In this document: positions 1 to 19,624 of the stretch, piece after piece
Layout of the letters: each line of letters opens with the position of its first letter
How positions within the stretch are numbered: the stretch's first letter is position 1
Source of the DNA: Kiritimatiellia bacterium
GTDB taxonomy: Bacteria; Verrucomicrobiota; Kiritimatiellia; RFP12; UBA1067
Reading direction: 5' to 3'
Assembly: GCA_017463935.1 (NCBI GenBank)
Contig: JAFUEM010000002.1
Location: forward strand, 531 to 64,530
DNA: 64,000 nucleotides
Position numbers and translations under genes: made by a program
The notes under the pieces: generated by a model
The model's database searches: none
What the model was told of the DNA's origin: nothing
Seen by the model: only the letters and a program-made list of their open reading frames with translations

Positions 1-1614
1 CGGATTCGCCGCGCCGCGGATGCGCAGGAAGCCCGCGCACTGCTCGAACGCCTTTTCGCCGAGGCCCTTCACCTTCCGGAGCTCCGCGCGGCTCGTGAAC
101 TTGCCGTGCTCGTTGCGGTAGTCGACGATGGCCTTCGCGAGGGTCGGCGTCACGCCCGAGACGCGCTCCAGAAGCGGCGCGGACGCCGTGTTCAGCTCCA
201 CGCCGACGCCGTTCACGCACGAGACGACGACCTCGTCGAGCTTCGCGCCGAGCAGCGCCTGGTTCACGTCGTGCTGGTACTGTCCCACGCCGATCGCCTT
301 GGGATCGACCTTGACGAGCTCCGCGAGCGGATCCTGGAGACGGCGGCCGATCGAGATCGCGCCGCGCACCGTGAGGTCGAGGTCGGGGAATTCCCTGCGC
401 GCGATCTCCGACGCGGAATAGACCGACGCGCCCGCCTCCGAGACGCTGACGACGATCGGCGTCGGGATTTCGGGATGCTGCGCGGCGAGCTTCTTCAGGG
501 TCGCGCGGCAGAACGCTTCCGTCTCGCGGCCCGCGGTGCCGTTGCCGACCGCGATCGCCTCGGGGCGGAACTTGTTGACGATGAGCGCGAGCGCGCGCGC
601 GGCCTCGTCGGGCTTCTGCTGCGGGAAGATCACCGTCTTGCCGAGATACTTGCCCGTCGCGTCCATCATCGCCACCTTGCAGCCCGTGCGGATGCCGGGG
701 TCGATGGCGAGGACCGCCTTTTCGCCGAGCGGCGCGGCGAGGAGCAGGTGGCGCAGGTTCTCCGCGAACACCTCCACCGCCGCGCGGTCGGCCGCCATCT
801 TCTTGTCGACCGTCACGTCGATTTCGCACGACGGCGCGAGGAGGCGCTTGTAGGCGTCCTGCGCCGCGAGCCGCACCTGCTCGCTGTCGTTGTCCAGAAG
901 GCTCATGATGCCGTCGAGCGCGAGCTCCTTGTCGAGCTCCAGCTTCACCCAGAGGACGTTTTCGTTCTGGCCGCGTTTGATGGCGAGGTAGCGGTGGGAG
1001 GGGATCGTCGCGATGGACTCGGCGAAGTCGTAGTACTGCTCGAACTTGGTCGGCTCCGTCGGCTTCGGCGAGGCGACCTCGCTCTTGACGAGCGCCTTCG
1101 TCGCGAAGAGCTGGCGCACGTACCCGCGCACGTTCGCCTGGTCCGCGATGCGCTCGGCGAGGATGTCGCGTGCGTACTGGAGCTCCTCGTCGCTCCGGCC
1201 GGCGGCGGCCGCGTCGCCGTCGGTCCAGATCGCGTCGGCGAGCGGCTCGAAGCCCTTCTCCTTCGCGACCTGCGCGCGCGTGCGGCGCTTGGGCTTGTAG
1301 GGCTGGTAGAGGTCCTCGAGCGCGGACTTCTGGTAGCAGGACGCGATCTGCGCGGCGAGCTCGTCCGTCAGCTTGCCCTGCGCGTCAATCGTCTTCAGGA
1401 TCGTCTCCTTGCGCGTTTCGAGCTCGGTGTAGTAGGCGAGGCGCTCCTGGATCCTGCCGATCGCGACCTCGTCGAGGTTGCCGTGCATCTCCTTGCGGTA
1501 GCGCGCGATGAACGGCACGGTGCTGCCCTCGCCCAGCAGTTTTTCGACGGCGGCGATTTGGCGGGCGTTCGCGCCCACCTCCGTCTGCATTCTCTCAATG
1601 ATCTCCGGTTTCAT
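1..1614 (-). CDS. tex: Transcription accessory protein Tex (N-terminal ~538 codons; 3' end lies beyond window start)
   Basis: Minus-strand translation from ATG 1614 reads MKPEIIERMQTEVGANARQIAAVEKLLGEGSTVPFIARYRKEMHGNLDEV... and stays open to position 1 through the helix-hairpin-helix region (GVELNTASAPLLERVSGVTPTLAKAIVDYRNEHGKF). It is absent from the ORF track because there is no stop in the window. Track ORF 106..1731(+) is its antisense shadow. Confidence 0.9.
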   Translation of the reverse strand, partial: MKPEIIERMQTEVGANARQIAAVEKLLGEGSTVPFIARYRKEMHGNLDEVAIGRIQERLAYYTELETRKETILKTIDAQGKLTDELAAQIASCYQKSALEDLYQPYKPKRRTRAQVAKEKGFEPLADAIWTDGDAAAAGRSDEELQYARDILAERIADQANVRGYVRQLFATKALVKSEVASPKPTEPTKFEQYYDFAESIATIPSHRYLAIKRGQNENVLWVKLELDKELALDGIMSLLDNDSEQVRLAAQDAYKRLLAPSCEIDVTVDKKMAADRAAVEVFAENLRHLLLAAPLGEKAVLAIDPGIRTGCKVAMMDATGKYLGKTVIFPQQKPDEAARALALIVNKFRPEAIAVGNGTAGRETEAFCRATLKKLAAQHPEIPTPIVVSVSEAGASVYSASEIARREFPDLDLTVRGAISIGRRLQDPLAELVKVDPKAIGVGQYQHDVNQALLGAKLDEVVVSCVNGVGVELNTASAPLLERVSGVTPTLAKAIVDYRNEHGKFTSRAELRKVKGLGEKAFEQCAGFLRIRGAANP

Positions 1615-2276
1615 GCCTCTGCATCTTTCATTCTTCTCACGATCCCTTCGCGCGGTTCGGCTTCGGGCGGAATCTTCAGCGGTTCGAGCGGCGCATCGTC
1701 GGCGGGCAGCGAGCGCCACGCCGCCGAATAGATCGGCAGACCCTCGGCGCGGAAGCCGGCCTCGAACTCGGTCCAGACCTCCGGCGGGCGCGGCATCGGC
1801 TCGACGCGCGCGAAACGCGCGTCCGCGGCGAAGCACGCCTCGACGACCTCGAAATATTCGCGGTGGTCGGTCACGAACTCGATGCGCCCGCCGATCGCGA
1901 GGCGCTTCCAGAGCGCGTTCAGGAAGAGGGGGCCGAAGAGGCGGTGCGAATGGTGCTTCTTCTTCGGCCACGGATCCTGGAAGAGCGCGTAGACCGTCCG
2001 CGCGTGGTGCGCCGGCAGGAGGTAGTGGAAGGTGTAGAGCGCCTCCAGGCGCAGGACCCTGGCGTTCGGAATGCGGCCGCGCACGCACTTGCCCGCGAAG
2101 GAGCGCACGCGCCCGAGCATCCGTTCGATGCCGAGAAAGTCGCAGTCGGGATTCGCCTGGGCGCGGCGCGTCAGGAAGCCGCCCGAACCGCAGCCGACTT
2201 CGATTTCCAGCGGGCGCGACAGGTCGATGTCGAGCGGGCGGCACGGATCGGTGACGCGGAGAATGGGATCGATCAT
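1611..2276 (-). CDS. trmB: tRNA (guanine-N7)-methyltransferase
   Basis: The internal ATG at 2276 of track ORF 1611..2612 gives MIDPILRV... SAM motif EVGCGSGGF and the FQDPWPKKKHHSHRL motif are typical of TrmB. ATGA overlaps occur with the pgpA stop (2273) and the tex start (1611-1614). Confidence 0.85.
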   Translation of the reverse strand: MIDPILRVTDPCRPLDIDLSRPLEIEVGCGSGGFLTRRAQANPDCDFLGIERMLGRVRSFAGKCVRGRIPNARVLRLEALYTFHYLLPAHHARTVYALFQDPWPKKKHHSHRLFGPLFLNALWKRLAIGGRIEFVTDHREYFEVVEACFAADARFARVEPMPRPPEVWTEFEAGFRAEGLPIYSAAWRSLPADDAPLEPLKIPPEAEPREGIVRRMKDAEA

Positions 2277-2761
2277 GCGAAGAAGAGGAGATAGAGGGCC
2301 CAGTTGATCGCCAGCGAGTAGAGGTTGGCGACGAAATCGTCGATCACGATGCCGCGGCCGCCGGGGATCGACTGGAGCGACCGGCACGGCCACGGCTTGA
2401 GGATGTCCACGGCGCGCACGACGACGAAGAAGACGGCCATCGCCCACCACGGCAGCGATGCGAGCGGCAGGCCGATGACGGCGAGCGGGTAGAGCATCCA
2501 TTCGTCGGCGGTGATGCGGCCGTCGTCCTTGATGCCGAGCAGCCGTTCGGCGACGTCGCAGAACGGGATCGCGAGCAGCGTCAGGCCGAGGCACGCGGGC
2601 AGCTGCGCCCACAGCGGCAGGCGCGTCGTCGCGTAGGCGAGCGCGACGCCGGCGGCGCTACCGAACGTGCCGGGCGCGAACGGCACCGCGAGGCCGACGC
2701 CGAATCCCGTCGCCACGAAGAGGCAGAACCTGTCAAATCCACTCCAGTTGTCCTTCATCAT
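2273..2761 (-). CDS. pgpA: Phosphatidylglycerophosphatase A
   Basis: MMKDNWSGFDRFCLFVATGFGVGLAVPFAPGTFGSAAGVAL... is the PgpA-type membrane protein signature. Start is ATG 2761 (alternatives 2758 or 2779). The upstream part of track ORF 2273..2941 is not coding. Confidence 0.75.
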   Translation of the reverse strand: MMKDNWSGFDRFCLFVATGFGVGLAVPFAPGTFGSAAGVALAYATTRLPLWAQLPACLGLTLLAIPFCDVAERLLGIKDDGRITADEWMLYPLAVIGLPLASLPWWAMAVFFVVVRAVDILKPWPCRSLQSIPGGRGIVIDDFVANLYSLAINWALYLLFFA

Positions 2762-2820
2762 GGGCGCATAGTATATCATAATTCCCGCCGCCCCCGCCGC
2801 GCGGACGCGGGCGGCCGGGG

Positions 2821-2855
2821 CCGAGAAACACAAAAGGCCGCCCTTTCGGACGGCC
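2821..2855 (-). terminator. Rho-independent terminator (minus strand)
   Basis: On the minus strand, GGCCGTCC-GAAA-GGGCGGCC (2836-2855; 8-bp stem including one G-U, GNRA loop) is followed by TTTTGTGTTTCT. The core 18-mer GCCGCCCTTTCGGACGGC recurs at 19779-19796. Confidence 0.7.
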
Positions 2856-2860
2856 ATCGA

Positions 2861-2888
2861 CTTCAGACTTCGGACTTCCGACTTCCGG
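2861..2888. repeat. Tandem heptamer block (CTTCNGA x4)
   Basis: Reads cttcaga cttcgga cttccga cttccgg. It starts exactly where homology of the truncated GT2 copy to its intact paralogue ends. Confidence 0.85.
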
Positions 2889-3281
2889 TGACTCAAATGC
2901 GGAGGCGACATGCGCCAGCGTCTCGTCGCTTGCCAGCACATCGTCGGCGTTCAAGATTCCAACGACATCGCCCGTCGCCATCTTGATGCCCTTGTTGATG
3001 GCGTCGTACATGCCCCTGTCCGGCTCGCTGATCCAGCGGAAGGTACACCGCTTGTTTTGAACGCAGAGCCGCAGAGGCGCAGAGTCTTTTAAATGTGCCG
3101 AACACGTAGCAGGCTCAATCTTTGCCGCATACTCCTTTATTACATCGACCGTGCCATCGGACGAGCCGCCGTCAACGACGATGTACTCGACATCTACGCC
3201 CTTCTGCGAAAGGACGCTCTCAATCGCCGTCCCAATCGTCTCCGCGCTGTTGTAGCAAGCGGTTATAAGTGAAATCTTCAT
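2889..3281 (-). pseudogene. Family-2 glycosyltransferase, 5' fragment (truncated paralogue of 23443..24225)
   Basis: MKISLITACYNSAETIGTAIESVLSQKGVDVEYIVVDGGSSDGT... matches the intact copy up to ...TLAHVASAFES, and then homology stops. It carries a ~22-codon insertion containing CGCAGAG repeats. The C-terminal ~130 codons are missing. Confidence 0.8.
3062..3085. repeat. Tandem octamer block (CGCAGAGN x3)
   Basis: Reads cgcagagc cgcagagg cgcagagt, read through in frame as ..APLRLCV.. The same unit recurs at 22030-22062. Confidence 0.85.
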
Positions 3282-4133
3282 TTGCAAATCCTCTCTATCG
3301 CCTTTTTCAGCAACTCCACTCTCTCCGCATCAGTTCCGTCTCGGTACCCCTTCAGGCAAACCAACCGCCCACCGTATGAATTTCCATCTTCCCACGCCGG
3401 AGCACCGTCTGTGGTAATGACTCTCTTCCCGCGCTCGAGGGCTTCGGCGACGACACGTCCGAAGTTCTCAGAAAGCGTTGGTAGCACAAGGACTTCGCAC
3501 CATTGCCACACGCGTTCAAGTTCCTCGCCCTGTGCGTCAGAGACAATCCGCAACTCGACATTAGGTAGACCAGCTACGGCCTGTTCAAGATATTCAATGC
3601 CTTTTAAGGGATGCTTGCGCCCAAGATACAGCAAATGTACTGGATTGGAAATGTACTGGATTGGAAATGATAAAATGGGTCTGACTTGTTTTATCATTTT
3701 GCGGCAGGCAGAAAAAGCGCTTTAGATTTGTGAGTTCAATTTTCCGTGCCCCTGGTTCGTATTCTCTTATCCATTTTGCTTCTGCTTCGCATGTAGCAAG
3801 CAGCACATCAGCCCTTCGTAGCATACGATGTTCAAAGAATGATACAAGTTTCTTCTTCCACCCGTGATATGCTCTACGCACAGGGTCATAGCTACCAGCC
3901 GGACGAATGTACAGCTTTGCGCCAACCGCTTTCGCCTTCTTCGCCACCCGCCACAACACCGGCAGCCACGCGCCATGTATCATTACAACATCGACGCCAG
4001 CAACGATCTGGGCGTGGATATTCGTCAAGCTCGAATCATCACCCCGTGCAAGCTCTTCATTGACAAACTGCCGCGCAGTATTTGCCATCCCGTTCCAGGA
4101 CTGTAATCCTGCGCAAAAGTGGACAACTTTCAT
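3278..4133 (-). pseudogene. GT4 (group 1) glycosyltransferase, frameshifted paralogue of 24222..25112
   Basis: ORFs 3594..4133 and 3278..3697 together align end to end with the intact GT4: MKVVHFCAGLQSWNG vs MRILHICAGWQKWNG, LLYLGRKHPLKG vs LLYLGRRHPLKG, and C-terminus ..ERVELLKKAIERICK in both. The frame breaks inside the 16-nt tandem duplication at 3633-3664. Confidence 0.85.
3633..3664. repeat. 16-nt perfect tandem duplication (AAATGTACTGGATTGG x2)
   Basis: The two units read directly at 3633-3648 and 3649-3664. Removing one unit joins ..HFIISNPVH to LLYLGRKHPLKG.. in one frame. Confidence 0.9.
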
Positions 4134-5313: not shown

Positions 5314-5447
5314 CTCAAACTGTCACGGCAGATATTTTACCATTTCCTGATGAGTTGGAGCACCGAAAACTGAGGCGTCAAAACCATCCGCGGCACCGGC
5401 TATCACCTCTCCCCAGACTACCTCACACGCGCCCCCCTCGGCACTTG

Positions 5448-6077
5448 CTAATCTTCATGAATTCCAACAAGCCTAATTGTCATCTCCGATGGAAGTCCGT
5501 TTGTCAGCGCATTAACATCCGCGGCCTTGTCAACAGAAAGTAATGCGTCTGCAGCATTGAATCTAAACGCATCCCTCAATGAAATGACGTCAGGAATTTC
5601 CGGGCCGAACAATGCCGACCATACATTTGTGGATCTTTCAAGACCAGATGTCGGTGCAATCGGAATCGTATTCGTGGCAATGGAATAAATCTTCGCATAC
5701 TCTTCACCCAAAGCCAATGACTGCATCAGAACAAGGCGAGCCCCAAAGAACCGCCAGTCTTTTGGCCTGTTTGCATATTCGCGCTCTATAGCCCACAGCA
5801 GATTTGTCGCTTCCACACGAGCCAAAGTGTCGTGTTCCGTTTCCGCACGCTCAAGAAGCACTGCAGACTTAAGCAATCTACACTCAACCAGTTCGTCGCC
5901 ATTGGTTGTTGCCACAATGAGCGCATTGATTTGATTCATGGAGCCCATCCTCTCCAGATAATTTGTAGATGAAAAGTCATGAAGAATGCTAGTCATCTGT
6001 TCGTGATAATTGACCTCTGCAGGCAGCGCGAACACTGCGCAACAAACAGCCAATACTGATAGGAATTTAACTTTCAT
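5448..6077 (-). CDS. Secreted hypothetical protein (accessory protein of envelope module 1)
   Basis: ATG 6077 overlaps the upstream stop (ATGA). Signal peptide MKVKFLSVLAVCCAVFALPA. It shows weak similarity (NYH.., ..ATTNGDELV vs ..AANTNDLV) to 11859..12323 and 12333..12809. Confidence 0.6.
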   Translation of the reverse strand: MKVKFLSVLAVCCAVFALPAEVNYHEQMTSILHDFSSTNYLERMGSMNQINALIVATTNGDELVECRLLKSAVLLERAETEHDTLARVEATNLLWAIEREYANRPKDWRFFGARLVLMQSLALGEEYAKIYSIATNTIPIAPTSGLERSTNVWSALFGPEIPDVISLRDAFRFNAADALLSVDKAADVNALTNGLPSEMTIRLVGIHED

Positions 6078-8599
6078 AGATTTATTTCCTCCACGATCTC
6101 CAGATATTTACTGCGTAGATTCCATCCTCGACCGTCTCTCCTGAAATATCTATACTCGATCTTTCCACCTTGCAGAAGCCGTATTGCACAGGCATTGCGA
6201 CCATTCATATTATCGTTTGCCCGCATCCATGCCGCCACGTCACCAAGTGAACTCCTATTCGCGCACCAGCTATTGATGATTTGCACACCGCCTTGGTTGT
6301 CAAGCGGCGCCTTCCAGCAATATCCGAGAAGCGCACTTGCGCCTGATAATGTTGCCCATTTTAATCCTGGGCTCGCTGAATGACTTGCCGGATTTGAATA
6401 ATGATTTCCCTTGTCGCCGATGTCCAACACCGAACATCCGGCAAAAATGACCGTCTCAACATCCCTCCAATGGTTTGTCACGTCCGCCGGCACCGCAACG
6501 CCGTAAAGCCTTCCGGTGTCATGCTCGCCATGCCCCGAATAGTAGAACACATCGGCCTGCTGCTGGCACTGCTTCTTCGTAGAACAAGACGCTCCGCACG
6601 ATGCCATAAGGCAGCCCGTCCCTGCCGCCTGAACGGTCTTGAGGTTAAACTCGCCCTCGGGTATCTGCGCGTCGGCATTGCCGCCCCATCTTCCGCGCGC
6701 CCGTCCATAAAGTCGACCCGTCGTATTCTCATCAAAGCAGTCGCTGTCTATCCTGTCACTTCCCGCGTCGGGCCCATTTGCCATGTCAACCGAGGTCTTG
6801 GCGACAATTTCATCATCGGCATTGCGAATAATGCCATTCGACTGGAGCCAGGCGGCAGCAACCGACACGCGAAAGACGTTCTGCCCTTGCGAAGTCGTAG
6901 TTGTCGCGCTTATGGGAATCGCCGCACCAGCTATATCGTGCGCTCCGTCAAAATCGACATAATACGATTTGAGCCGGATTCTCCCGCCAAAGAGCCCTAC
7001 AAAGGCGGAGACTGTCATCTCAGAACCGCCGACAGTCGCCTTCACAATGACAGACTCTCCGACTATCACAGGGTATTTCCATTCAATGGCGTTGCCAGAA
7101 GCGTCCAGTATCTCAAGACTGACGCCGCGACTTTCAATCTCGTCAATGCTCGCCTGGTCTTCATAATAGCAACGACATCTCCCCCGCCAGGAGAACGGAT
7201 ACGAATACCCTTCCCATTTTGCGGCACCCGAAAGCGAATGTTCCGAACCGCCGCAGAGACATTGCAGGGAGCAACCCCACGAGAAACCAATCTCGTTCGT
7301 CACGCACGAGCAGCAACCGCCTGCGATGTTAAGGATTCTCGGGCCGACATCTATTGGCGAAGTGTGTGCAACATAGCTGTCGGAACCGCCGCGCATCTGA
7401 ACCCGCTCAAACGGCAACTCCAACGGCAAAGAAACGGTTAATCGGTTCGCGTCGTTTGTCACGATCTCCGCGTATTCGCTCGACACGGCAGAGTAGTCAA
7501 TCGGCAAGTTGCTATCGACTGCGTATGTCGCGCCAGCGAGAAGCGGGATGTGACAGACTTGGTTTGTCCGCGCAATGATCACATGGTCGCCAAGGTCGCT
7601 CGCTCCATCGCAAGTGACGCGGATCGCCGCAACGCCGAGAAGCCCAGTTACCGAAAGATCAAGCCAGTAGTAGGCATCGGGATTCGCGTTTGGTGGCAAG
7701 CCGTTTGCCGCGTCAAAGAAATCTCCGTCGTAGCTTGCCGGGTTCGCGTCTCGCTCGTTATGGATTCCATCATCATCCCAATCGTCGGGGTTGATGCGGC
7801 GGCAGACAGTCTCGACATCGTTGGAGCGTGTCAGGAAATCGCCATTGGGGGAAAGGATGATCTGCGCGTTGACGGGGCAGTTCGTGTCGCCGCCGAGGAA
7901 GAAGCTTTCCCATGTGAGGATGCGGACCCCGTCTTCGCCATCAAGCCGCCACAGTCGGCTTTGTTCTGGAACGGCAGACATTGGAACGCCAACGGCGCAG
8001 ATTTCGTGCGCGGCATCGTGCGGAGCCGGGCGTATGCGACCATCGATGAAATACCAAAACGACGAAAACGCCTCGTCGTTTGTGCCGAGCGGGAACGACC
8101 AATTGGTAGGGACGAGCGTCCCGCTCGTCCGCAAAACGCCGAAATCAACCACATTGTTCCCGAACGACGATGCCGCGCCGTGGATGTGCCAGTTCCCGAC
8201 AAGCGCTGCGTTCGTAGGCATCGCATACGAAACCGCCGCATTAGTCGTAACGCTCTCCACTCGCCACCCGCGCATAATGTCATCAATAGTTGTCTGGACA
8301 GGATTCACAAGGCTTATAAGATTACCAATCCCCACCAATCCTGTCAATCCTGTCAAAAAACTTCCACTAGGTTGCATCTGCGGCTGATTCATATTCGGCG
8401 GCACATTGTTCGTCTTCTGCGCGGTAAGAGTTGCGACAACTGCCGCTGCGGCAAACCCCAGCAAAAGCGAGCGCGGCAACCGGCGAAGTGCCCGCAGACC
8501 AACAACAGCGGCGTATGCAGCCGCAACAGCGAACATCGCCATTACAGTGCAGTAGCCAATATATAACCAATCCACTATCACTTCATTCCCCAAATCCAC
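6074..8599 (-). CDS. Giant membrane-anchored Cys-rich protein with C-terminal CHAT/caspase-like domain (envelope module 1)
   Basis: GTG 8599 lies 8 nt after GGGAGAAG. There are two N-terminal hydrophobic segments. A roughly 370-aa region is shared with 12842..15658 (AMPTNA, HGAxSxFG, SRLW, TWExFFxGGDTNxxVNAQI, NGDFxxRSND, RRINPxDWDxDG, CDGxSxLGD). Then come a Cys cluster (GGCCSCV..CLCGG..GRCRCY) and a C-terminal FYYSGHG-(31 aa)-CSVLD..LLGYCWKAPLD. Confidence 0.7.
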   Translation of the reverse strand: MDLGNEVIVDWLYIGYCTVMAMFAVAAAYAAVVGLRALRRLPRSLLLGFAAAAVVATLTAQKTNNVPPNMNQPQMQPSGSFLTGLTGLVGIGNLISLVNPVQTTIDDIMRGWRVESVTTNAAVSYAMPTNAALVGNWHIHGAASSFGNNVVDFGVLRTSGTLVPTNWSFPLGTNDEAFSSFWYFIDGRIRPAPHDAAHEICAVGVPMSAVPEQSRLWRLDGEDGVRILTWESFFLGGDTNCPVNAQIILSPNGDFLTRSNDVETVCRRINPDDWDDDGIHNERDANPASYDGDFFDAANGLPPNANPDAYYWLDLSVTGLLGVAAIRVTCDGASDLGDHVIIARTNQVCHIPLLAGATYAVDSNLPIDYSAVSSEYAEIVTNDANRLTVSLPLELPFERVQMRGGSDSYVAHTSPIDVGPRILNIAGGCCSCVTNEIGFSWGCSLQCLCGGSEHSLSGAAKWEGYSYPFSWRGRCRCYYEDQASIDEIESRGVSLEILDASGNAIEWKYPVIVGESVIVKATVGGSEMTVSAFVGLFGGRIRLKSYYVDFDGAHDIAGAAIPISATTTTSQGQNVFRVSVAAAWLQSNGIIRNADDEIVAKTSVDMANGPDAGSDRIDSDCFDENTTGRLYGRARGRWGGNADAQIPEGEFNLKTVQAAGTGCLMASCGASCSTKKQCQQQADVFYYSGHGEHDTGRLYGVAVPADVTNHWRDVETVIFAGCSVLDIGDKGNHYSNPASHSASPGLKWATLSGASALLGYCWKAPLDNQGGVQIINSWCANRSSLGDVAAWMRANDNMNGRNACAIRLLQGGKIEYRYFRRDGRGWNLRSKYLEIVEEINL
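8297..8360. repeat. Back-to-back inverted pair of AATCCTGT-family blocks (copy B plus a degenerate partner)
   Basis: gacaggattcacaaggcttataagatt (8297-8323, reverse orientation, degenerate) is followed by caatccccaccaatcctgtcaatcctgtcaaaaaa (8326-8360). Both are read in frame as ..FLTGLTGLVGIGNLISLVNPVQ.. in the linker after the membrane anchor. Confidence 0.8.
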
Positions 8600-8675
8600 C
8601 CATCAATCTTCTCCCTATGTCCCCTGCCCAACCCACCACGCGCAGTTCTTCCGTGTCACCCATTGAAATCACATA

Positions 8676-8717
8676 GTTATCTTCTACGGAAGGAAACGTC
8701 CTTCTGTAGAAGATAAC
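8676..8717. other. 19-bp stem hairpin (possible terminator or insulator)
   Basis: gttatcttctacggaagga-aacg-tccttctgtagaagataac has 18 Watson-Crick pairs plus one G-T and a 4-nt loop. There is no clear U-tail on either strand. It lies between the defence pair and the 841-aa gene. Confidence 0.6.
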
Positions 8718-8772
8718 CCCTTTCATCTGTGGATAAATCCACTTTCGTCGTTAGCCCCGCCAATCTGTGGAA

Positions 8773-9195
8773 TCACGACTTGTCTTCCGGCTTCAATTTC
8801 TCACATGTCTCTTCCACATTCGCATGAACAAGAGTCATGCAACGCGCAAGCACAAGTTCTGCGCCATCCGCCCGGTTGTTACAGCACTCGCATAATGGCG
8901 CTATAAACACCCGCTTATCATCTGAACCCTTTATCATCACATGACATCCTTCTATCTCAGCAAGCTTTCCATTTTTTGTCTTTCCAGTGCAACCAGCAAC
9001 CGCACAATCCCCAGCCCCAGGGGCATTCTTATCGCTTAAAGTCTCCCAATGCCTTATCCATGGACCGCAATTTGGGCATTCCCTGCTTTTCTTTGCCGTT
9101 CCATTTCGATTGATCAATACAGTCCCCGCAGGAACAAATTTCTGCGAGAAAATCTTGATTATCTCGTTAGCAACCTCATCATTTTGATTTTCCAT
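8773..9195 (-). CDS. Small Cys-rich putative zinc-binding His-Me (HNH-like) finger protein
   Basis: ATG 9195 is preceded by GGAGGT. The protein is 140 aa with 10 Cys. The pattern CPNC..CAVAGC..GCHV..(D)KRVFIAPLCECCNNR fits a zinc-stabilised beta-beta-alpha nuclease finger. There is no closer family assignment by eye. Confidence 0.45.
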   Translation of the reverse strand: MENQNDEVANEIIKIFSQKFVPAGTVLINRNGTAKKSRECPNCGPWIRHWETLSDKNAPGAGDCAVAGCTGKTKNGKLAEIEGCHVMIKGSDDKRVFIAPLCECCNNRADGAELVLARCMTLVHANVEETCEKLKPEDKS

Positions 9196-9438
9196 TTGGC
9201 ACCTCCATTTCTTGGATTATTCTTATGTTGTGACCGCACTCGCAGTCAGCGGGAAAGTTAGAAAAGAATTCCTACAAGTTTCTACAAAATCGCAGGAAAT
9301 TTGACAAGACAAGAATTGGTCTTTTATGCTTGCAATGGCAATAGTATCCTATTTGCGCCGACAATATCAATGCAACCTTGCGCTCTTTCTCAAACTCGCG
9401 CCACACGCCTGACATGAAGATTCGGTAGGTCATACAAG

Positions 9439-11787
9439 TTATGCGTGGTGGACAATTTTAAGAGCAAGGTTCACATAAGTTTTCAATTCTATTGGATCTG
9501 GAACATCTGCAGAAACGCCTGTAACCCGATGATGGAAACGCTGAGTATATGCGTTAACATCTTCCAAGTCTGTTACAAGACATTTACAAGGCGCCATTAC
9601 ATCATGTATTTGGGCGTTTTTGATACAGCTTATCATATCACCAAGCCAGACTTTCTCTCCAAAATTCAATGGATACTTATAGTGAAGATATGTTTCCAAT
9701 AGCGGCCTAATCCGTCCAACGACTTCTTTTAGTTTATCATGATAAAGATCTGGATTGTCCGCATAACCTGCTAGTTCCATATAATCCGTTTCATACGATT
9801 TTGATGGCAACTGCGGAAGTTCGCCATGCTTCAACTCTATTGCAGAACCCATTTGAGGAATCTCAAATGCCCGAATCTCATTACGTGCAATACCCTTGTC
9901 GGACATAAACATCTGAACAAATTCAATATTATGTGAGAGCAGGAAGAATTGGGAACACGCGTTTGCTTTCCGCTTTAGCAGACTAATTGTCTGCGATTGT
10001 CTACTACGGTCTTGATCGTGATATGGATCATCAATAACTACAATTGCGGAAGCAAGATTAGAATCCGTTTCCAACTTGGCCAAAAAGAACGCCAAGGCCA
10101 AGGCGCTACAGTCTCCACCACTTAAACTATTTGAAAGAGACAGCCGCGATGGGTCATCAGCCGCCCCAGATGAACAGTCAACTTGTGCTGACTGTCCATT
10201 AGCTGAGATTTTTATAGACAATTGCCCCGACGCCACACCTCCTCTCAAATTGACACCATCGTTTCCAACAGTAAAATTGACTCCAAATACGCCAAGAATT
10301 TCATTAATCTTATCTCCAAATGAATCAAATATCGACTTAGACTCTTCTTTTAGAGCATCATTAGCTTGCGTCTTCGCATCTTGAGCGGCTTGCTTGGCTA
10401 ATAGCGCACTATCATATTCCTGATAAGCGCTAACAACACTTTTCTCATAACGTTTCTTCTGTAGTTCTAACAGACTTAACTCTTTAGTAGAATCGTCAAT
10501 GTTGATGGTAGCAATTGACCGTTGGAACTCCTTTATTTGCGCATTGGCTACATCAATAGCATCGTTATATGCTGTAATACACGATTGCATACTGCCAAGT
10601 GAATCTAATGCAACAATCTCGCTTTCAAGCAGGGGAACTGCAATGGTCAGATTACTTTGCTTCCGCGCTATCGCCGCCAATGCCACACGAAGAACCCGTG
10701 AATAGATCCCTTTAATGGCTTCAACATCAAACGATGGCAATGCAATCGACAAGCCACAGGCATCTTTCCACCATGAAACGTCTCCAGAATTTTGTTTTGC
10801 AACATTAACTAATTCTATTTGTGCCTTATCCCCCATACAACTTTGAAAAGCAGATCTAACACCACTTCGACGATTTTCTTGTTGTTTCAACGCCCCAGAA
10901 AAGAATACTTTATATGTTGTAAATAAATCAACATGAGACATAACCTGCCCACAGTATGGGCATAGTGTCCCAGTTTGAGCCTCATATCCTTGTTTTATCC
11001 AGTCAACAGACAACTTTTTAGGATCTGAACATAGAGCAAGGTGTTCTTTGATTTTTCCTTCCGCAGTCAACGCCGCGTCATCAAGCGTTGTCGACAAAAC
11101 ACTTTCCAAATCACTTTTTGCAATTGACGGCATTGCTATCTTTTGCATCAACCCATGTTTACGAATCTGATCGGCCTTGGACTTTTTATTTTTATCAGCA
11201 GTAATACGCGCCTTGAGTCCCAATATCTTAACATCAACATCATCAACTTTCTCAAGTGTTCTGAAGGTATCTATCTGCTGACCCGCCGGGATCAGAGCTG
11301 AAAGCACAGATGCACATCGCGAAACAGCCTCTGTTGCTCTAGTAAGTTCATCTCCTGCTTTTTGAACAGCCCTATTAAGTTCAATTGCTTTTGGCCCTAA
11401 TGCCAGACTATACACATTTCGCTTCTGCTCAACACCAATTTGGCCACCGACAATCACATTATCCTTGACAAATCGTTGGTCAAAAACAAGAATGTGCGAT
11501 CCATCAAGTGGACAATTCCATTGTCCATTATTAAATACCAGATGCTGATTATTATCGGAAAGCAAGTCAATAAGCGGTTCCGCCTCTCCGCCAATCCTCT
11601 TACGTCCAATAACATACGATGAATTTTGTGTATCCAACGATCTGAGAACGTCGCACAGTGTTGTCTTTCCGCAAGCATTTAGAGCATATATGACATTCAC
11701 CTTGCTAAACTCACCATCATTACCGCTTGATGACCTAAGCTTCTCGAATCGACCAACGTTTTCTAGTTTAATGATTCTTTTTATCAT
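9439..11787 (-). CDS. RloC/AAA_13-like ABC-type ATPase with coiled-coil zinc hook (candidate anticodon nuclease or defence ATPase)
   Basis: ATG 11787 is preceded by AAGGAG. Walker A is ALNACGKTT, with signature LSGGD and Walker B IVVIDDP in the C-terminal third. A long helical insertion contains CPYC (aa 276-279, nt 10951-10962). The C-terminal RPLLETYLHYKYP..QRFHH resembles the PrrC/RloC-type tail. Confidence 0.6.
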   Translation of the reverse strand: MIKRIIKLENVGRFEKLRSSSGNDGEFSKVNVIYALNACGKTTLCDVLRSLDTQNSSYVIGRKRIGGEAEPLIDLLSDNNQHLVFNNGQWNCPLDGSHILVFDQRFVKDNVIVGGQIGVEQKRNVYSLALGPKAIELNRAVQKAGDELTRATEAVSRCASVLSALIPAGQQIDTFRTLEKVDDVDVKILGLKARITADKNKKSKADQIRKHGLMQKIAMPSIAKSDLESVLSTTLDDAALTAEGKIKEHLALCSDPKKLSVDWIKQGYEAQTGTLCPYCGQVMSHVDLFTTYKVFFSGALKQQENRRSGVRSAFQSCMGDKAQIELVNVAKQNSGDVSWWKDACGLSIALPSFDVEAIKGIYSRVLRVALAAIARKQSNLTIAVPLLESEIVALDSLGSMQSCITAYNDAIDVANAQIKEFQRSIATINIDDSTKELSLLELQKKRYEKSVVSAYQEYDSALLAKQAAQDAKTQANDALKEESKSIFDSFGDKINEILGVFGVNFTVGNDGVNLRGGVASGQLSIKISANGQSAQVDCSSGAADDPSRLSLSNSLSGGDCSALALAFFLAKLETDSNLASAIVVIDDPYHDQDRSRQSQTISLLKRKANACSQFFLLSHNIEFVQMFMSDKGIARNEIRAFEIPQMGSAIELKHGELPQLPSKSYETDYMELAGYADNPDLYHDKLKEVVGRIRPLLETYLHYKYPLNFGEKVWLGDMISCIKNAQIHDVMAPCKCLVTDLEDVNAYTQRFHHRVTGVSADVPDPIELKTYVNLALKIVHHA

Positions 11788-11830
11788 TTCATCACTCCTT
11801 CTTAGAGAAAAATTCCATGACCTTTCCTCA

Positions 11831-11861
11831 ATCTACACGTTCTACATGTTCTACACGGCTA
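11831..11861 (-). repeat. Tri-nonamer element, GTGTAGAAC family, solo copy
   Basis: The reverse complement tagccgtgtagaacatgtagaacgtgtagat shares TAGCCGTGTAGAAC.. with the arm at 23411-23442. It abuts and overlaps the stop codon of 11859..12323 and lies 44 nt upstream of the ATPase start. Confidence 0.85.
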
Positions 11862-12323
11862 TTTCTGGAGCGGCGTCCAGAGGCCGGTTTCCGAGATCTG
11901 TTCAAGGATGAAGTCGCAGTCCAAGGGCTTGTGCGAGATCTGGGACTTCGCCCTTTGCTCCTGAAGGACGGCGTCGGTCTGTTGCGGCAGAAATTCGTCG
12001 AGGTAGTACACCCACCCGGACCGAAGGTTGGAGCACAGATTCGTGAGCGACGGCTCGCTTACGGAGTCCAATGCGCAGACAAGGCGCTGTATCGAGTTTG
12101 ACATAGCCTGGTAGTCCGAAAACAATATGTCGTACGAAACCATGAGGTGCGAGGCGACGAGGTCGTTCGTGTTCGCCGCCAGACGCTGCTGCGCCAGCTC
12201 GTAGACGTTCGTCCAGTTGCCCTGATACCAGTCGTTCGTAACAGCGTGATAGTTGTCCGCCGACGGGGCCGCATGCGCGAACGCCGAGAGCGAGAATGCA
12301 ATTGCCGCGATTGTATTCTTCAT
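11859..12323 (-). CDS. Secreted hypothetical protein (tandem paralogue 2, envelope module 2)
   Basis: ATG 12323 follows GAGGGA. Signal peptide MKNTIAAIAFSLSAFAHA. It shares YHAVTNDWYxGNxxNVxELxxxRLAANTNDLV with 12333..12809. Confidence 0.7.
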   Translation of the reverse strand: MKNTIAAIAFSLSAFAHAAPSADNYHAVTNDWYQGNWTNVYELAQQRLAANTNDLVASHLMVSYDILFSDYQAMSNSIQRLVCALDSVSEPSLTNLCSNLRSGWVYYLDEFLPQQTDAVLQEQRAKSQISHKPLDCDFILEQISETGLWTPLQK

Positions 12324-12332
12324 GTCGTTCCC

Positions 12333-12809
12333 TCATTGCTGATTCACCGGCGTCCACATCCCGTTGTCCCAAAGGAGCTTGAGCCACCTTTTTTCGGGGA
12401 TCGGCTTGTGGGGAAGGCTCGCCTTCGGCAGTTCTGCACGCCGCATCTCCTCCGTCACGTTGGGCAGCACCTGGTCGCGGAACGCCACCATGACCGGACG
12501 CAGCCTCTGGAAGTCGTTGCTGAACGCGGCGTTCGTCACGGCGTCGGAGAGGGCTATGGTCCGCGTCACGGAATTGGACAGCGTCGGGATGTCGGCGAAG
12601 CAGATGTCCCAGCTCAGCTTGAGATAAGCCCCCACAAGGTCGTTCGTGTTCGCGGCGAGCCTTGCCGATGAGAGTTCGAGCACGTTCGAGAAGTTCCCGT
12701 TGTACCAGTCGTTCGTAACGGCGTGGTAGCTGTCCTGCGAAGGGGCAGCCGCGGCCACCGCTCCGGCCATCGTGAAGAGCGCCGCCAGCATTGTCGTTTT
12801 TCCAGTCAT
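12333..12809 (-). CDS. Secreted hypothetical protein (tandem paralogue 1, envelope module 2)
   Basis: Internal ATG 12809 (MTGKTTMLAALFTMAGAVAAAAPS.., AGGAA upstream) of track ORF 12333..13322. The 5' extension of that ORF overlaps the 938-aa gene and is rejected. Confidence 0.7.
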   Translation of the reverse strand: MTGKTTMLAALFTMAGAVAAAAPSQDSYHAVTNDWYNGNFSNVLELSSARLAANTNDLVGAYLKLSWDICFADIPTLSNSVTRTIALSDAVTNAAFSNDFQRLRPVMVAFRDQVLPNVTEEMRRAELPKASLPHKPIPEKRWLKLLWDNGMWTPVNQQ

Positions 12810-12841
12810 TTCCTTGTTCCTTTCTTTTCGAGTATCCATTG

Positions 12842-15658
12842 TCAATGCCCGTCCCCGACGCGCTGCGTCGTGAATCCGGGCGAGATGAAGTTGAAGTTGA
12901 AGTCGATGTCGGGCATGAATGTCGTGTGGTTGTCGGTCGGCCTGGCGTTCGGCCACAGCCGCCTTTCCTTCACGTCCGCGCCTGCCCAGACGTTCGTGGC
13001 CATTGCCTGCATCGTCTCGTCGAGGTCGGCTCCATCCGCGACGGCAGTCCCTGCATCCCAGCTCGCCGATCCGGCATCGTCGTCCCATGTGCCGTACCTG
13101 TAGCGGGCAAGCCACCGGGAGAGCGCAAACACATTGATCCTCTCCGTTTCGTATGCAACGAGAAAATTCGAGAGCTTCGCGACGCGCATGGGCACTCCGC
13201 GGAATGTCGCCACGGCACCCATGCCCGAAAGGTCGTTGACCTGGTTGTAGTGCCACACCGTCGGTGCCAAGGCGGAGTCCACTCGCCCGAGGTAGTCGCC
13301 GACGCCGTTGTCGTTGAACCATTCCTCGCCAAATGAAATGGTCTGCCGCTCAAGGTACGTGTAGTGCGAAAGCAGGTGCGCTATCGTCGCGTCCACGTCC
13401 ACCATGCCGGAGGCGAACACGCCGTCGATGCTCGCTCCTGAGAGCGGAAGCACCACGTTGCCCTCCGTCCAAGGGGAGCCGTCGCAGCGGCCCCTGAAGC
13501 GGTATACCCCTCCCTGCGTGGGATTCACGAATTGCGCCGCAAGCCCGCCCCCGTGCGAGAACGCACCGCTCATCTGCGGCTTCGCCTCGATGACCTCCCA
13601 GTCGCAGGGAAGCGACGATCCGTTCACCCCCGTCGGCGCGAGGACAAGGTTCATGTCCACGGTGAAGTTCGTGACGGAGAACCCACTGTCGCCCAGCGCC
13701 GCGACATTGCAGAACGGAACGACGAGATGTCTGTCCGAGGCGAGACTGTTCGTGATTGAAAAAGGACATGCCGTCTCGCCGTTGAACGTAGGCGGGTTGG
13801 GACTTGTCCCTGCGTATGCGCATGTCATGTCAAGATTCGTCACGCAGGCGACAGTGAGGTGCGCCATGTTAGTGTACGACTGTCCGGCGATCTCGCTCAC
13901 AAGCCGAAACTCCACGTCGTCAATCGAATCGCTCAGAACCGCGCCCTTTACCTCCATCCAGCCGCTCCCCTGCGAGAGAACAGTTATCTTGTCCGCCCCT
14001 GCCGTGCATTCAAGCGACATCGACGCCTCAGCGTTCGACGAGCCGGGCGGATCGTACACACCCGAGACGATGTGGCTGTTGCCGCCGCGCATGATCACTC
14101 GCGGCGCGGAGATGGAGACCCACGCCGAAGTGTTCGTCTCGTTCACGCGCTGGCAGCCGCACTGCGACTCCCAGTTGAACAGCCTTGAGTATCCCTCCCA
14201 GAGTGCCGTCACCTGCCACCACTGCGAATAGCCAGAGCAGTGGCAGGTGTCGCAGCAGTTCCACACATAATTGCTCGCATTGCATTCAACAGAGCAGCAG
14301 TTGCCGGTCACCGCGCCGATCACCACGCCTATATCTGGGCTGCTCGTAATGCGTCCGCCGCTCTCGCCTCCCTCAAGATCGATGTCGACCGGCCTCTCGA
14401 CCTCAAAATCGTCGCTCGGCCCAATTCCGCCACCAGCCCCCAGCAAACGCAGTCCTGGCGTCGGCAAATTTGATGGTCGAACTGTGTTCGACCTATCCAC
14501 TATCTCCGCCTCTGAGTCGCTTGCCGCTATGCCATCCACCGGCCAGCTTGCGGTCACGTGGTATCTCGCCCCCATCAGCATCGGCACTTCGCACGCCTGC
14601 CCCTCGTTGGCCAACACGACCATGTCGCCGAGGTTACTCGGCCCGTCACAGGCGATCGTCACCCTCGTCCCGTCATGTGTCGGCGCAAACGCAAGCCAGA
14701 AGTAGGCGTTTTCGTTGGCATCCGCGTTCCACACTATTTCGTATCCGTCGTCCGCATCAGGCACCGCCGACAGCACGCCCCGGCAATTCGCGTTGAGCCA
14801 GTCTAGTCCGGTTCCGAAGCAGTCGCCGTCGGATGCCGTCGGCCATTCGTCGATCAGATTGTCGAGACCGTCTCCGTCCCAGTCGTTCGGGTTGATGCGC
14901 CGGAACACCCTCAGAAAGTCGTTGCTTCTCACTGTAAAGTCGCCGTTCGCGTTCAGGGTAATCTGCGCGTTGACGGCCTCGTTCGTGTCGCCGCCCGCAA
15001 AGAACCGCTCCCACGTGACAGTTCGCGTACCTTCGCTCGCGTGCGCCCACAGGCGGCTTTCTCCTTGCATTGCAAGCGTGTCCCCCAGTTCAGCCGAAGC
15101 CATGAACTCGGAACCACGCAGCGCGTCCTGCAGTCTCCCGTCCATGAACCACCAGAATGCCGAGGTCGTCGCGTTGCTCGGCCCATAGGGAAACGCCCAG
15201 CCTGTCGCCTCTCCTCCGACGGAATCAAGATCAACGACGTGCCTTCCGAAATCAGACCGAGCACCATGCAGGTGAAGCTTTCCGATGTACACGGCGTTCG
15301 TCGGCATGGCAAAAGAATGCCCCGCTTCGTTTGTAACCGATACAAGCCGATATCCTTGCGCTATCTCTTCCGCCGTCACCGTCGGCTCCGGCTCTCCCAC
15401 CCCTGCCAAGCGTAGATTTGATAGCCGAAATATGCTCGACCTGCCGCCACCATTGCCCGGCTTCTGTGCCTCGACCGTGGCAACAACCGCCATAGCAACA
15501 AGCAGAGTCTGCACAAAACGCGGCAGAGCCCTAAGCTGCCCCCACGCCGCCTTGAGCGACCTTCTCATTGTCATTGCGGCGAGCATGCCGTAGAACAGCA
15601 GGCCCGCAGCAAGCGCGACTAAATTCCAGTTAATCTCCATCGAAATCGTTTCACCCAT
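12842..15658 (-). CDS. Giant membrane-anchored Cys-rich protein (envelope module 2), paralogue of 6074..8599 with an unrelated C-terminal half
   Basis: ATG 15658 (alternative 15640). The double hydrophobic N-terminus, shared ~370-aa region and Cys cluster (GNCCSVECN..CCDTCHCSG..SQCGCQ) match module 1. The C-terminal ~450 aa have no counterpart in the 841-aa protein and no recognisable domain. Confidence 0.7.
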   Translation of the reverse strand: MGETISMEINWNLVALAAGLLFYGMLAAMTMRRSLKAAWGQLRALPRFVQTLLVAMAVVATVEAQKPGNGGGRSSIFRLSNLRLAGVGEPEPTVTAEEIAQGYRLVSVTNEAGHSFAMPTNAVYIGKLHLHGARSDFGRHVVDLDSVGGEATGWAFPYGPSNATTSAFWWFMDGRLQDALRGSEFMASAELGDTLAMQGESRLWAHASEGTRTVTWERFFAGGDTNEAVNAQITLNANGDFTVRSNDFLRVFRRINPNDWDGDGLDNLIDEWPTASDGDCFGTGLDWLNANCRGVLSAVPDADDGYEIVWNADANENAYFWLAFAPTHDGTRVTIACDGPSNLGDMVVLANEGQACEVPMLMGARYHVTASWPVDGIAASDSEAEIVDRSNTVRPSNLPTPGLRLLGAGGGIGPSDDFEVERPVDIDLEGGESGGRITSSPDIGVVIGAVTGNCCSVECNASNYVWNCCDTCHCSGYSQWWQVTALWEGYSRLFNWESQCGCQRVNETNTSAWVSISAPRVIMRGGNSHIVSGVYDPPGSSNAEASMSLECTAGADKITVLSQGSGWMEVKGAVLSDSIDDVEFRLVSEIAGQSYTNMAHLTVACVTNLDMTCAYAGTSPNPPTFNGETACPFSITNSLASDRHLVVPFCNVAALGDSGFSVTNFTVDMNLVLAPTGVNGSSLPCDWEVIEAKPQMSGAFSHGGGLAAQFVNPTQGGVYRFRGRCDGSPWTEGNVVLPLSGASIDGVFASGMVDVDATIAHLLSHYTYLERQTISFGEEWFNDNGVGDYLGRVDSALAPTVWHYNQVNDLSGMGAVATFRGVPMRVAKLSNFLVAYETERINVFALSRWLARYRYGTWDDDAGSASWDAGTAVADGADLDETMQAMATNVWAGADVKERRLWPNARPTDNHTTFMPDIDFNFNFISPGFTTQRVGDGH
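12886..12903. repeat. Tandem hexamer block (TGAAGT x3)
   Basis: Read directly. It encodes ..DFNFNF.. nine codons before the stop of the 938-aa gene. Confidence 0.7.
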
Positions 15659-18253: not shown

Positions 18254-19624
18254 TCATGCTTCGATCATTCGTCTTTGACTTGACTTCGCTTCCTTGATAA
18301 TGCCGTCAAGAATGGACGTGTCCAGCAAAAAAGGAATCACCCCTACATGCAGGATGCCGTCTTCATCGGGGCGCAACTGACCATATCCATTTTCCACCAC
18401 TATCTTCTGGAAAAAGTCCGCTGTGAGTTTCAAGGATTTGGTTTCCTGTTCCGCCTTGCCCGGGCGGGACATATCGTATGCAGATTGGATATAGACCTTG
18501 TTGAATCCCGCATTGACGATGAAATCGATCTCGTACCGGCAGGAAACCATTTTTCCCTCATCATCCCTGCGGTTTACATCAACCACACCGACATCTACAT
18601 TGTAGCCACGAAGGACAAGTTCATTGTAGATTATGTTCTCCATCAAGTATGTCGGCTCAACCTCCCTAAAATTCAATCTTGCATTGCGAAGACCTACATC
18701 CTCGGCATAGTACTTGCTTGGGTACAGAAGATATTTTCGTCCCCGGACTTCATAGCGTGCGGCTTTTGCAAACAAGAATGAATCGACAAAATAATCGAGA
18801 TATGACTTTACGGTAGGCTCGGACGTCTTCAAGACGCCTCGCGAATTGATCGTATTGGCAAGTTTGTTGGGGTTGGTAAGGGATCCTACAGACGAAGATA
18901 CCACATCCAACACCGATTCGCAGATGGCATCAGTCCGCAAATGGTTGCGTTCAATTATGTCCTTAATGTAAACCTTGGAAAAGAGACTCTTGAGATACTC
19001 TGCCCTCGCGACATCGTCCGCCTCCATGACCGCCACCGGCATTCCGCCCCATATCATATATGCGGAAAGAGCCTCGGATTTGTCGGCATATCCCGTCGCC
19101 TGCAGATATTCCGCGAAGGAGAATGGATGCAACCGAATTTCTACGCCTCTGTCTCTAAAATTGGTTGCAACATCCTTCGACAGAAGTTTTGAATTGGAGC
19201 CAGTCACATATACATCGACGTTCGGCTTTTTGCGCAGGGAATTTAGGATGTCGTAGAAGGTAATATATGCATCCTGTCGGTCTTCGGGCGCAACATCCCG
19301 CAGTTTTACTCCCGACTGGAGAACTTTGCGACACATCTGAACTTCATCTATAAACACATAAGTCCACTTGCCATCATCCGGCAGAAGGGAAACGATGAAG
19401 TCGAAGAGCTTGTTTGGATTGCGCAGATGAACGTTCTCTTTGCTTTCCAAATCCACGCCAATGATATGGCCGGTATCGACACCTTCGGAAATCAGATGCT
19501 CACGGAACAAGTTGAATAGCAGGAACGACTTGCCGCACCGTCGAATGCCAGTGACGATTTTCACGAAACCATCGTGTTTCCTTGCTATCAGTCTCGATAG
19601 ATATCGCTCTCGCCTTACTTTCAT
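18254..19624 (-). CDS. AAA-family ATPase with DUF4143-type C-terminal domain (COG1373-like)
   Basis: MKVRRERYLSRLIARKHDGFVKIVTGIRRCGKSFLLFN.. carries a Walker A motif. The overall 456-aa architecture is typical of AAA_14 plus DUF4143 proteins. Confidence 0.7.
   Translation of the reverse strand: MKVRRERYLSRLIARKHDGFVKIVTGIRRCGKSFLLFNLFREHLISEGVDTGHIIGVDLESKENVHLRNPNKLFDFIVSLLPDDGKWTYVFIDEVQMCRKVLQSGVKLRDVAPEDRQDAYITFYDILNSLRKKPNVDVYVTGSNSKLLSKDVATNFRDRGVEIRLHPFSFAEYLQATGYADKSEALSAYMIWGGMPVAVMEADDVARAEYLKSLFSKVYIKDIIERNHLRTDAICESVLDVVSSSVGSLTNPNKLANTINSRGVLKTSEPTVKSYLDYFVDSFLFAKAARYEVRGRKYLLYPSKYYAEDVGLRNARLNFREVEPTYLMENIIYNELVLRGYNVDVGVVDVNRRDDEGKMVSCRYEIDFIVNAGFNKVYIQSAYDMSRPGKAEQETKSLKLTADFFQKIVVENGYGQLRPDEDGILHVGVIPFLLDTSILDGIIKEAKSSQRRMIEA

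Follow-up and report, generated by a model that had tools for sequence, protein, structure and literature searches.

RloC and PrrC are anticodon nucleases in which an ABC ATPase is joined to a C-terminal domain that has been classed as HEPN (PMC3710099). By definition RloC proteins are 658-897 amino acids (aa) long and combine the ABC motifs with a CX2C-containing coiled-coil insert and the residues R-X3-E-X36-52-H (PMC2610378), while PrrC, as known from the EcoprrI type Ic restriction-modification (R-M) locus of Escherichia coli, is only 341-416 aa long, lacks a coiled-coil or zinc-hook insert and is always found in a type I R-M locus. In Septu, another defense system with an ATPase, PtuA is followed by the HNH protein PtuB. 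Herein we analyze two genes with a Septu-like order in a 64,000-nt stretch of contig JAFUEM010000002.1 (assembly GCA_017463935.1, Kiritimatiellia bacterium), which is referred to in its entirety as the window and supplies all coordinates unless another locus is named. The genes encode a 782-aa ATPase and a 140-aa Cys/His-rich protein, and an initial annotation, made from the letters of the window, had proposed that they form a two-gene anti-phage module. Both open reading frames (ORFs) are present as that annotation had claimed, and both are on the minus strand.

We propose a different explanation, which we regard as likely. The ATPase gene would be a stand-alone gene of the RloC type that arrived as a fragment of a restriction operon and now occupies a slot prone to the swapping of its contents, next to an independent protein with two zinc sites. 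The gene pair should not, then, be catalogued as a new two-gene defense system. Rather, the ATPase adds one more well-preserved member to the RloC family, and the relocated operon fragment illustrates how anticodon nucleases regarded as 'restriction-linked' may turn solitary.

The 782-aa ATPase and its relation to RloC and PrrC

Taking sequence and structural model together, the 782-aa protein is a bona fide RloC-type, Rad50-like ATPase and a predicted anticodon nuclease, an assignment based on the agreement of its features with the definition of Davidov and Kaufmann (2008). Its length falls inside the RloC range, and it shares with the RloC proteins of Geobacillus kaustophilus and Acinetobacter baylyi (PMC2610378; PMC3458546; PMC3874168) the ABC motifs, the insert with a CX2C hook, the R-X3-E...H residues and the AAA_13 family. 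Two of the profile scans that the initial annotation had suggested gave a match, to Pfam AAA_13 with 110.6 bits (cut-off 36) and, as the best PADLOC model, to PDLC04895 (PDC-S06) with 201 bits over residues 1-705 of 782. Together with the invariant hook cysteines, these matches uphold the earlier description of the protein as an RloC-like zinc-hook ABC ATPase. PDC-S06 is a single-gene class of computational candidates, and no experimental validation of it came up among the papers listed by a literature search. Some of the homologues carry the JGI name 'wobble nucleotide-excising tRNase'.

The invariant residues listed in Table 1 were identified in alignments of 18 and 51 ATPase homologues with identities down to 24%, and they include residues of the Walker A motif, the hook, the ABC signature and the Walker B/D-loop as well as the switch histidine. 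The C-terminal tail had been read as R-x3-E-x3-H..FHH and likened to an anticodon nuclease region. Of this pattern R694, E698 and H753 are invariant, while H702 is not conserved. An AlphaFold2 (AF2) model (pLDDT 83.3) consists of head lobe I (residues 1-130), a helical insert of 370 residues (132-501) with a low-confidence apex around the CxxC (257-294), head lobe II (505-652) and an all-alpha C-terminal domain (661-781). The structures matched by this model in Foldseek are SMC and Rad50 heads with coiled coils, Lamassu LmuB and retron/Septu PtuA, with no PrrC or RloC structure among them, and the protein is assigned to RloC by its motifs, architecture and profiles.

What the protein has in common with PrrC is the ABC ATPase and the HEPN-type anticodon nuclease domain, and the usual position of its subfamily in an R-M operon is also PrrC-like. 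It differs from PrrC in its size and its long insert, it gave no hit to the PADLOC model of PrrC, and the window copy has lost its linkage to R-M genes, as only a relic of hsdS is left.

A mode of action for the window ATPase may be proposed by homology with the RloC enzymes that have been studied. In this scheme a coiled coil with a CxxC zinc hook at its tip would separate the two head lobes, and the ATPase/hook region would hold the C-terminal HEPN-type anticodon nuclease silent. A phage-linked cue, which could be DNA ends or damage or the loss of type I restriction activity, would turn the nuclease on, and the activated enzyme would cleave tRNA anticodon loops such that translation halts and the infection is aborted.

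Restriction-operon relatives and the cargo slot

In contrast to most RloC genes, the closest relatives of the window ATPase are embedded between hsdS and hsdR. Among the loci compared with the window (L-numbers, mostly short metagenome contigs), type I R-M operons contain the homologues with 84% (L021-L023), 68% (L007, L008) and 42% identity (L012, Microbulbifer). In these operons the ATPase gene is located between hsdS (or hsdM) and hsdR and is often followed by a DUF4062 or Fic gene, while a homologue with 54% identity is solitary amid RHS genes. The view that type I R-M genes are the usual context of RloC, which was held in the initial annotation, is thus appropriate for the subfamily of the window ATPase but not for RloC generally, where such linkage was found for 8 of 73 genes (PMC2610378). 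Likewise, the remark that no type I R-M genes are present is correct for intact genes near the ATPase, but the 3' end of an hsdS gene abuts its start. One of the operons, that of L007 with a 68% homologue, is heavily loaded with cargo and contains, at L007 positions 1427-3832 and 7449-8324, two Peptidase_C14 (caspase-like) genes along with a Fic gene that matches PADLOC PDC-S04 with 545 bits.

The nucleotide homology between the window and L021-L023 (85%) extends past the ATPase ORF on both ends. On the upstream side the translated hsdS relic agrees with the C-termini of the hsdS products of L021 and L022 ('…NGHGIFLKEGAMK*'), whose ORFs are Methylase_S, and on the downstream side there are the first codons of a DUF4062 gene. 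With these relics on its two flanks, the window copy is, as far as can be read from the DNA, a low-GC fragment of ~2.4 kb from an hsdS-rloC-DUF4062-hsdR operon, and we suggest that this fragment, still with its hsdS tail and DUF4062 head, was relocated into a slot with fixed boundaries. The relics recall the hsdR relic that lies beside the rloC gene of G. kaustophilus. At least three type I R-M loci are found in other parts of the host genome, and hence the solitary window gene could be regulated in trans, as has already been proposed for solitary RloC genes.

The ATPase gene forms an island of ~42-48% GC between flanks of 55-61% GC in every locus compared in this respect (L021, L022, L007, L009, L012), even inside R-M operons, and the gene itself seems to move as a cassette between restriction operons. 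In the window the ATPase gene has 41.4% GC and the small gene 46.1%, compared with 62.2% for the genome. The earlier spot count of 37% for the pair is therefore too low, and the pair is not the lowest-GC block in the window, as two other 1-kb bins have lower values, namely 38.9% at 37-38 kb and 39.5% at 42-43 kb.

The slot itself becomes apparent when loci with different contents are compared. The same-species loci L086 and L087 have the arrangement of the window. In L001, L003 and L004, which lack the ATPase, no more than ~5 nt lie between a 150-aa homologue of the window 154-aa gene and the subsequent sequence homologous to window positions 9283-8791, which comprises the small gene and its own upstream region, and the encoded small protein is 81% identical to that of the window. 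In L088, L089 and L090 the homology to the window starts exactly at position 9433, the ATG of the DUF4062 relic, which marks the right boundary of the slot, and the 29 nt of the left boundary are retained in L089 next to a different cargo. That cargo, present in L089 and L090, is a 768-aa AAA_13 protein with 22% identity to the window ATPase and is a canonical RloC (CQFC hook; R669-x3-E673-x39-S-H713), while the cargo of L088 is represented by the end of a gene for a HerA-like ATPase. The empty sites, the shared junction at 9433 and the conserved left junction together indicate a fixed-end slot of ~2.4 kb with alternative single-gene cargos, in which the small gene is the constant right flank.

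The slot is placed between two paralogous large-protein gene modules, and neither an integrase nor a tRNA gene was seen at it. In L001-L004 it is the opposite flank of the small gene that has variable cargo, in the form of a reverse transcriptase (RT) gene or of an E1-E2/JAB/PDC-M48 set. The locus hence resembles chromosomal defense hotspots in having fixed flanks with alternative cargo (RloC types, the HerA-like ATPase, the RT gene, the E1-E2/JAB/PDC-M48 set), and differs from them in that the slot is tiny, takes single genes and lies between two such paralogous modules.

Three candidates for further elements were considered and rejected. The pair of GGAATT-N4-5-TCTAA repeats, which is unique in the genome, might have been an att-like duplication, but the left copy is part of the hsdS relic and the pair is therefore a junction microhomology at most. 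Contig C166 (10,850 bp), a potential second copy of the locus, has the same flanks as C222:3351-14200 and is 99.99% identical to it, so that it is a redundancy of the assembly and as such provides no evidence of mobility. An '84-aa gene' in L089, a potential third component, is a read-through of the DUF4062 relic and the spacer.

The 140-aa protein and its association with the ATPase

Several points weigh against our reading of the locus. The triad of the window ATPase is spaced R-x3-E-X54-H, two residues beyond the published X36-52, and the residue before the catalytic H753 is a histidine (H752) instead of the serine of RloC. Zinc binding, tRNA cleavage and phage defense by this protein are predictions from its sequence. 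Other points concern the relation of the two genes and would favor a single two-component system of the Septu kind, with the ATPase as sensor and the small protein as a His-Me/HNH DNase effector. The genes are adjacent on the same strand, folding of the 243-nt gap between them gave no terminator-like structure, and a strong hairpin is found only after the small gene, which makes their co-transcription plausible. A 3.26-kb block that spans both genes, beginning at the left junction and reaching as far as the start of the 841-aa gene, is 99-100% identical between the window and L086 although the flanks are only 86-94% identical, and the pair must thus have moved together at least once. Furthermore, the window clade, L089/L090 and L065 are three settings in which a small-family gene adjoins an AAA_13 gene, somewhat above naive chance. 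At the level of motifs, the small protein resembles Endonuclease VII (CxxxxC...H...CxxCN), the gene order is that of Septu, and the fold of the ATPase resembles PtuA and SMC heads.

The distribution of the two genes largely refutes such a two-component system, which we regard as very improbable. The initial annotation had suggested a survey of co-occurrence, and 68 loci with a small-family gene were available for this (metagenome contigs, 25 IMG/VR contigs and 28 reference genomes, representing 40 lineages at 70% identity). An AAA_13 neighbor is found in two of the 40 lineages, that of the window and that of L065, the latter with the reverse gene order, and within the lineage of the window it is found in five of 10 loci and stems from two unrelated RloC subfamilies. 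Clustering of all neighbors of the 68 loci revealed no recurrent partner of the small family beyond groups of related contigs. Conversely, the small protein is absent beside the ATPase homologues with 84, 68, 54 and 42% identity, and at the syntenic site the small gene also occurs without the ATPase. The small proteins of L088, L089 and L090 are identical to each other (P0010; 75% identity to that of the window), yet the neighbor is the HerA-like ATPase in L088 and the unrelated RloC in L089. The gap between the two window genes is made up of a gene relic and a spacer, so the coupling is not tight. The pair also differs from Septu in that the PADLOC PtuA model barely matches the ATPase (E = 0.059), the small protein has no PtuB or HNH match, and the ATPase has a nuclease domain of its own.

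The comparison of L088 with the window (5355-9433) also shows that the small gene does not travel as a unit with its surroundings. The 209-aa gene is 100% identical, the 841-aa gene is 99%, then 96% and then 89% identical from 3' to 5', the small gene is 81% identical and the 88 nt upstream of it are 98% identical. This mosaic suggests that the allele of the small gene was exchanged separately from its upstream region, and that recombination is frequent here, with breakpoints in and near the small gene and tracts of many extents. Given these many extents, the occurrence of one small-protein allele beside two different cargos and the ATPase homologues in R-M operons that lack the small protein, a two-gene defense module is not supported. 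The small gene appears instead to be a resident and independently distributed neighbor that has no dedicated ATPase partner.

What the 140-aa protein might be is a separate question. A profile search gave 884 representative clusters at E<=1e-3, mostly of 95-140 aa, and among the members P0091, P0097 and P0098 are examples with two tandem copies of the ~95-residue Cys/His core and others with unrelated N-terminal extensions. The family is rare, in that it was found in four of 41 related genomes, including that of the window, and in two of 400 genomes of another phylum. All of the motifs quoted in the initial annotation are present (CxxC 40-43, CxxxxC 64-69, GCHV 83-86, PLCECCN 100-106). In 45 diverse members C40, C43, H49, C64, C69, G83, H85, P100, C102, N106 and C131 are invariant and position 105 is Cys or His, while C84 is not conserved. 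From this we infer that eight Cys/His residues, position 105 included, could fill two zinc sites, with H85 and N106 left over. The divergent member of L065, in which C40, C43, H49 and C131 are lost together and the other set (C..C / AHV / PLCxxCN core) is kept, fits two separate sites.

The AF2 model of the small protein is confident (pLDDT 91.3, pTM 0.85; strands 81-88 and 97-102, short helix 103-106), but a Foldseek search with it found no match in PDB (best E 1.5) or BFVD (best E 0.29). No significant match to the protein was found in Pfam, PADLOC, NCBIfam or PHROGs, and sequence searches of the PDB returned noise only. The HNH profile that the initial annotation had recommended is thus among those without a hit, as are the His-Me families of Pfam. 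In a Pfam scan of the 45 members there was zinc-ribbon noise and, also insignificant, RecA_dep_nuc in one (0.0077) and DUF968 in two (0.14). Compared by hhalign with a single Endonuclease VII protein, the sole one found in 301 genomes, the family gave a non-significant probability of 2.5%, in an alignment that sets C64/C69, H85 and C102-x-x-C105-N106 on the matching elements of Endonuclease VII (DHxH, CxxCN).

With T4 endonuclease VII and HNH proteins, such as the phage HNH proteins associated with packaging (PMC12967558), the small protein may have in common a Cys pair, a His on a beta-strand, a hairpin and C-x-x-C/H-N, and phage members of the small family likewise lie in terminase/portal neighborhoods. 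It differs from them by the lack of any profile or fold match, as described above, and by an extra putative zinc module (C40, C43, H49, C131). Distant members of the small family are located in phage head/packaging modules (L024, L026, L070, L034-L048), either with the portal gene on one side and TerL or the head protease gene on the other, or near TerL beside a GIY-YIG homing endonuclease, and other members have an IS91 transposase, E1-like genes, HEC-01 genes or polysaccharide genes as their context. The motif pattern and the packaging-module context make an HNH assignment a lead, and our best guess is that this is a small DNA-binding or DNA-cutting protein of the His-Me-finger-like type.

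If the protein does cut DNA, it might be the active element of the hotspot, as a homing-type or site-specific nuclease that cuts beside itself and promotes the exchange of cassettes on both of its sides, with the same family in or near the packaging module in phages. It is the constant gene amid variable cargo, which lies on the left in the window and in L088-L090 and on the right in L001-L004, and the sharp boundaries of the slot, the short repeats at the junctions and the mosaic recombination around the small gene would all speak for such an element. The phage neighborhoods (TerL/portal, head protease/portal, GIY-YIG), the invariance of H85 and N106 beyond the residues for two zinc sites and the core that is kept in L065 are in line with this as well. 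On the other hand, there is no nuclease homology or fold match and no defined target site, tblastn with the family against 50,697 GenBank phage records and 72,556 plasmids gave no match, a resident nuclease is unnecessary for the turnover of a hotspot, and the left repeat copy, explained by the hsdS relic, is microhomology and not a cut site. We consider this role decidedly unlikely. The bolder form of the idea would be that the 140-aa protein is the founding member of a family of mini-nucleases not described before, two-zinc and His-Me-finger-like, of phage packaging modules and bacterial defense hotspots, and that it serves here as an anchor whose cutting drives the exchange of single-gene defense cassettes on either side, but this is a long shot.

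A non-catalytic role can also be envisaged, in which the protein would be a zinc-ribbon or treble-clef regulator that binds DNA or RNA and acts on its neighbors, for example the downstream 841-aa module, the defense neighbors being incidental. Zinc-ribbon and zinc-finger families are the only weak profile matches, the gene always lies between the two large-protein modules in the closest lineage, and it has its own Shine-Dalgarno sequence and a conserved upstream region. A dedicated local regulator is a poor fit, however, to distant members in contexts as unrelated as phage packaging, IS91 and polysaccharide genes, and the invariant H85 and N106 are not obviously required by a purely structural zinc fold. 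We regard this role as unlikely too. As an unannotated rare family (~884 clusters) with a confident model and no likeness in the PDB or in a library of viral structures, which recurs both in phage head/packaging modules and in defense neighborhoods, the small protein could be characterized biochemically at little cost.

Locus layout and neighboring genes

The features of the locus are listed in Table 1. Comparison with homologues shows that both genes are under purifying selection, with dN/dS values of 0.08-0.18 in the case of the ATPase gene and of 0.13-0.32 in that of the small gene. The strong Shine-Dalgarno sequences noted in the initial annotation, AAGGAG and GGAGGT, are indeed located 6-7 nt ahead of the respective ATGs, and the hairpin on the 3' side of the small gene is kept in L086-L090 at ~86%.

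Table 1. Positions in the 64,000-nt window of the two genes, of motifs in the ATPase and of features of the slot. Residue numbers refer to the encoded protein.
Feature	Position	Strand	Basis or remark
RloC-type ATPase gene, 782 aa	9439..11787	-	ORF; Pfam AAA_13 1.3e-31; PADLOC PDC-S06 8.4e-60
Walker A, NACGKTT (37-43)	11659..11679	-	Alignments; G40, K41, T43 invariant
Predicted zinc hook, CPYC (276-279), at low-confidence apex of helical insert	10951..10962	-	Alignments, AF2; C276, P277, C279 invariant
ABC signature LSGGD (555-559) and Walker B/D-loop VVIDDP (583-588)	10024..10125	-	S556, G558, D586, D587, P588 invariant
Switch histidine, H619	9931-9933	-	Alignments; invariant
Predicted C-terminal all-alpha (HEPN-type) anticodon nuclease domain, with RIRPLLETYLH (692-702) and RFHH (750-753)	9445..9807	-	Invariant R694 (9706-9708), E698 (9694-9696), H753 (9529-9531)
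Cys/His-rich, predicted zinc-protein gene, 140 aa	8773..9195	-	ORF; homologues, alignments, AF2 model
Native backbone upstream region of small gene, including GGAGGT	9196..9283	-	Homologous to L001-L004, where the 150-aa gene is immediately before it
Hairpin, 19-bp stem, 3' of small gene; probable terminator or regulatory hairpin	8676..8717	-	Minimum free energy -42.6 kcal/mol, z = -4.8
hsdS 3'-end relic (…KGHGIFL*EGVMK*), 47 nt, now source of the Shine-Dalgarno sequence of the ATPase	11788..11834	-	85% nt homology to L021/L022
DUF4062 relic, first ~22 codons, 66 nt, MTYRIFMSGVWREFEKERKVAL	9368..9433	-	Matches N-termini of the genes after the ATPase in L021/L022
Left slot boundary, TAGCCGTGTAGAACATGTAGAACGTGTAG, directly after 154-aa gene	11833..11861	-	29 nt 100% identical in L089 despite different cargo
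Spacer between DUF4062 relic and backbone	9284..9367	-	Common to L088-L090; no homology to L021-L023 or L001-L004
Repeat GGAATT-N4-TCTAA, left copy, within hsdS relic	11802..11816	-	
Repeat GGAATT-N4-TCTAA, right copy, backbone	9258..9272	-	Single copy at empty site of L001/L002

No Pfam match was found for any of the proteins of the flanking modules (938, 841, 174, 209 and 154 aa). The 938-aa gene is followed by tandem paralogous genes for signal-peptide proteins of ~155 aa (11859-12323 and 12333-12842, minus strand). Farther away on the minus strand, a 456-aa protein (18254-19624) matches the PADLOC candidate PDC-S01 with 351 bits, and as the distance of this second single-gene defense candidate to the RloC-type gene is ~6.5 kb, the region can be called defense-island-like. 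In the related strain represented by L086, the 841-aa gene (window 6074-8599) has shrunk to a 142-aa ORF (L086 positions 7618-8046), in which the first ~72 and the last ~73 residues of the 841-aa protein are fused as the result of a large internal deletion.

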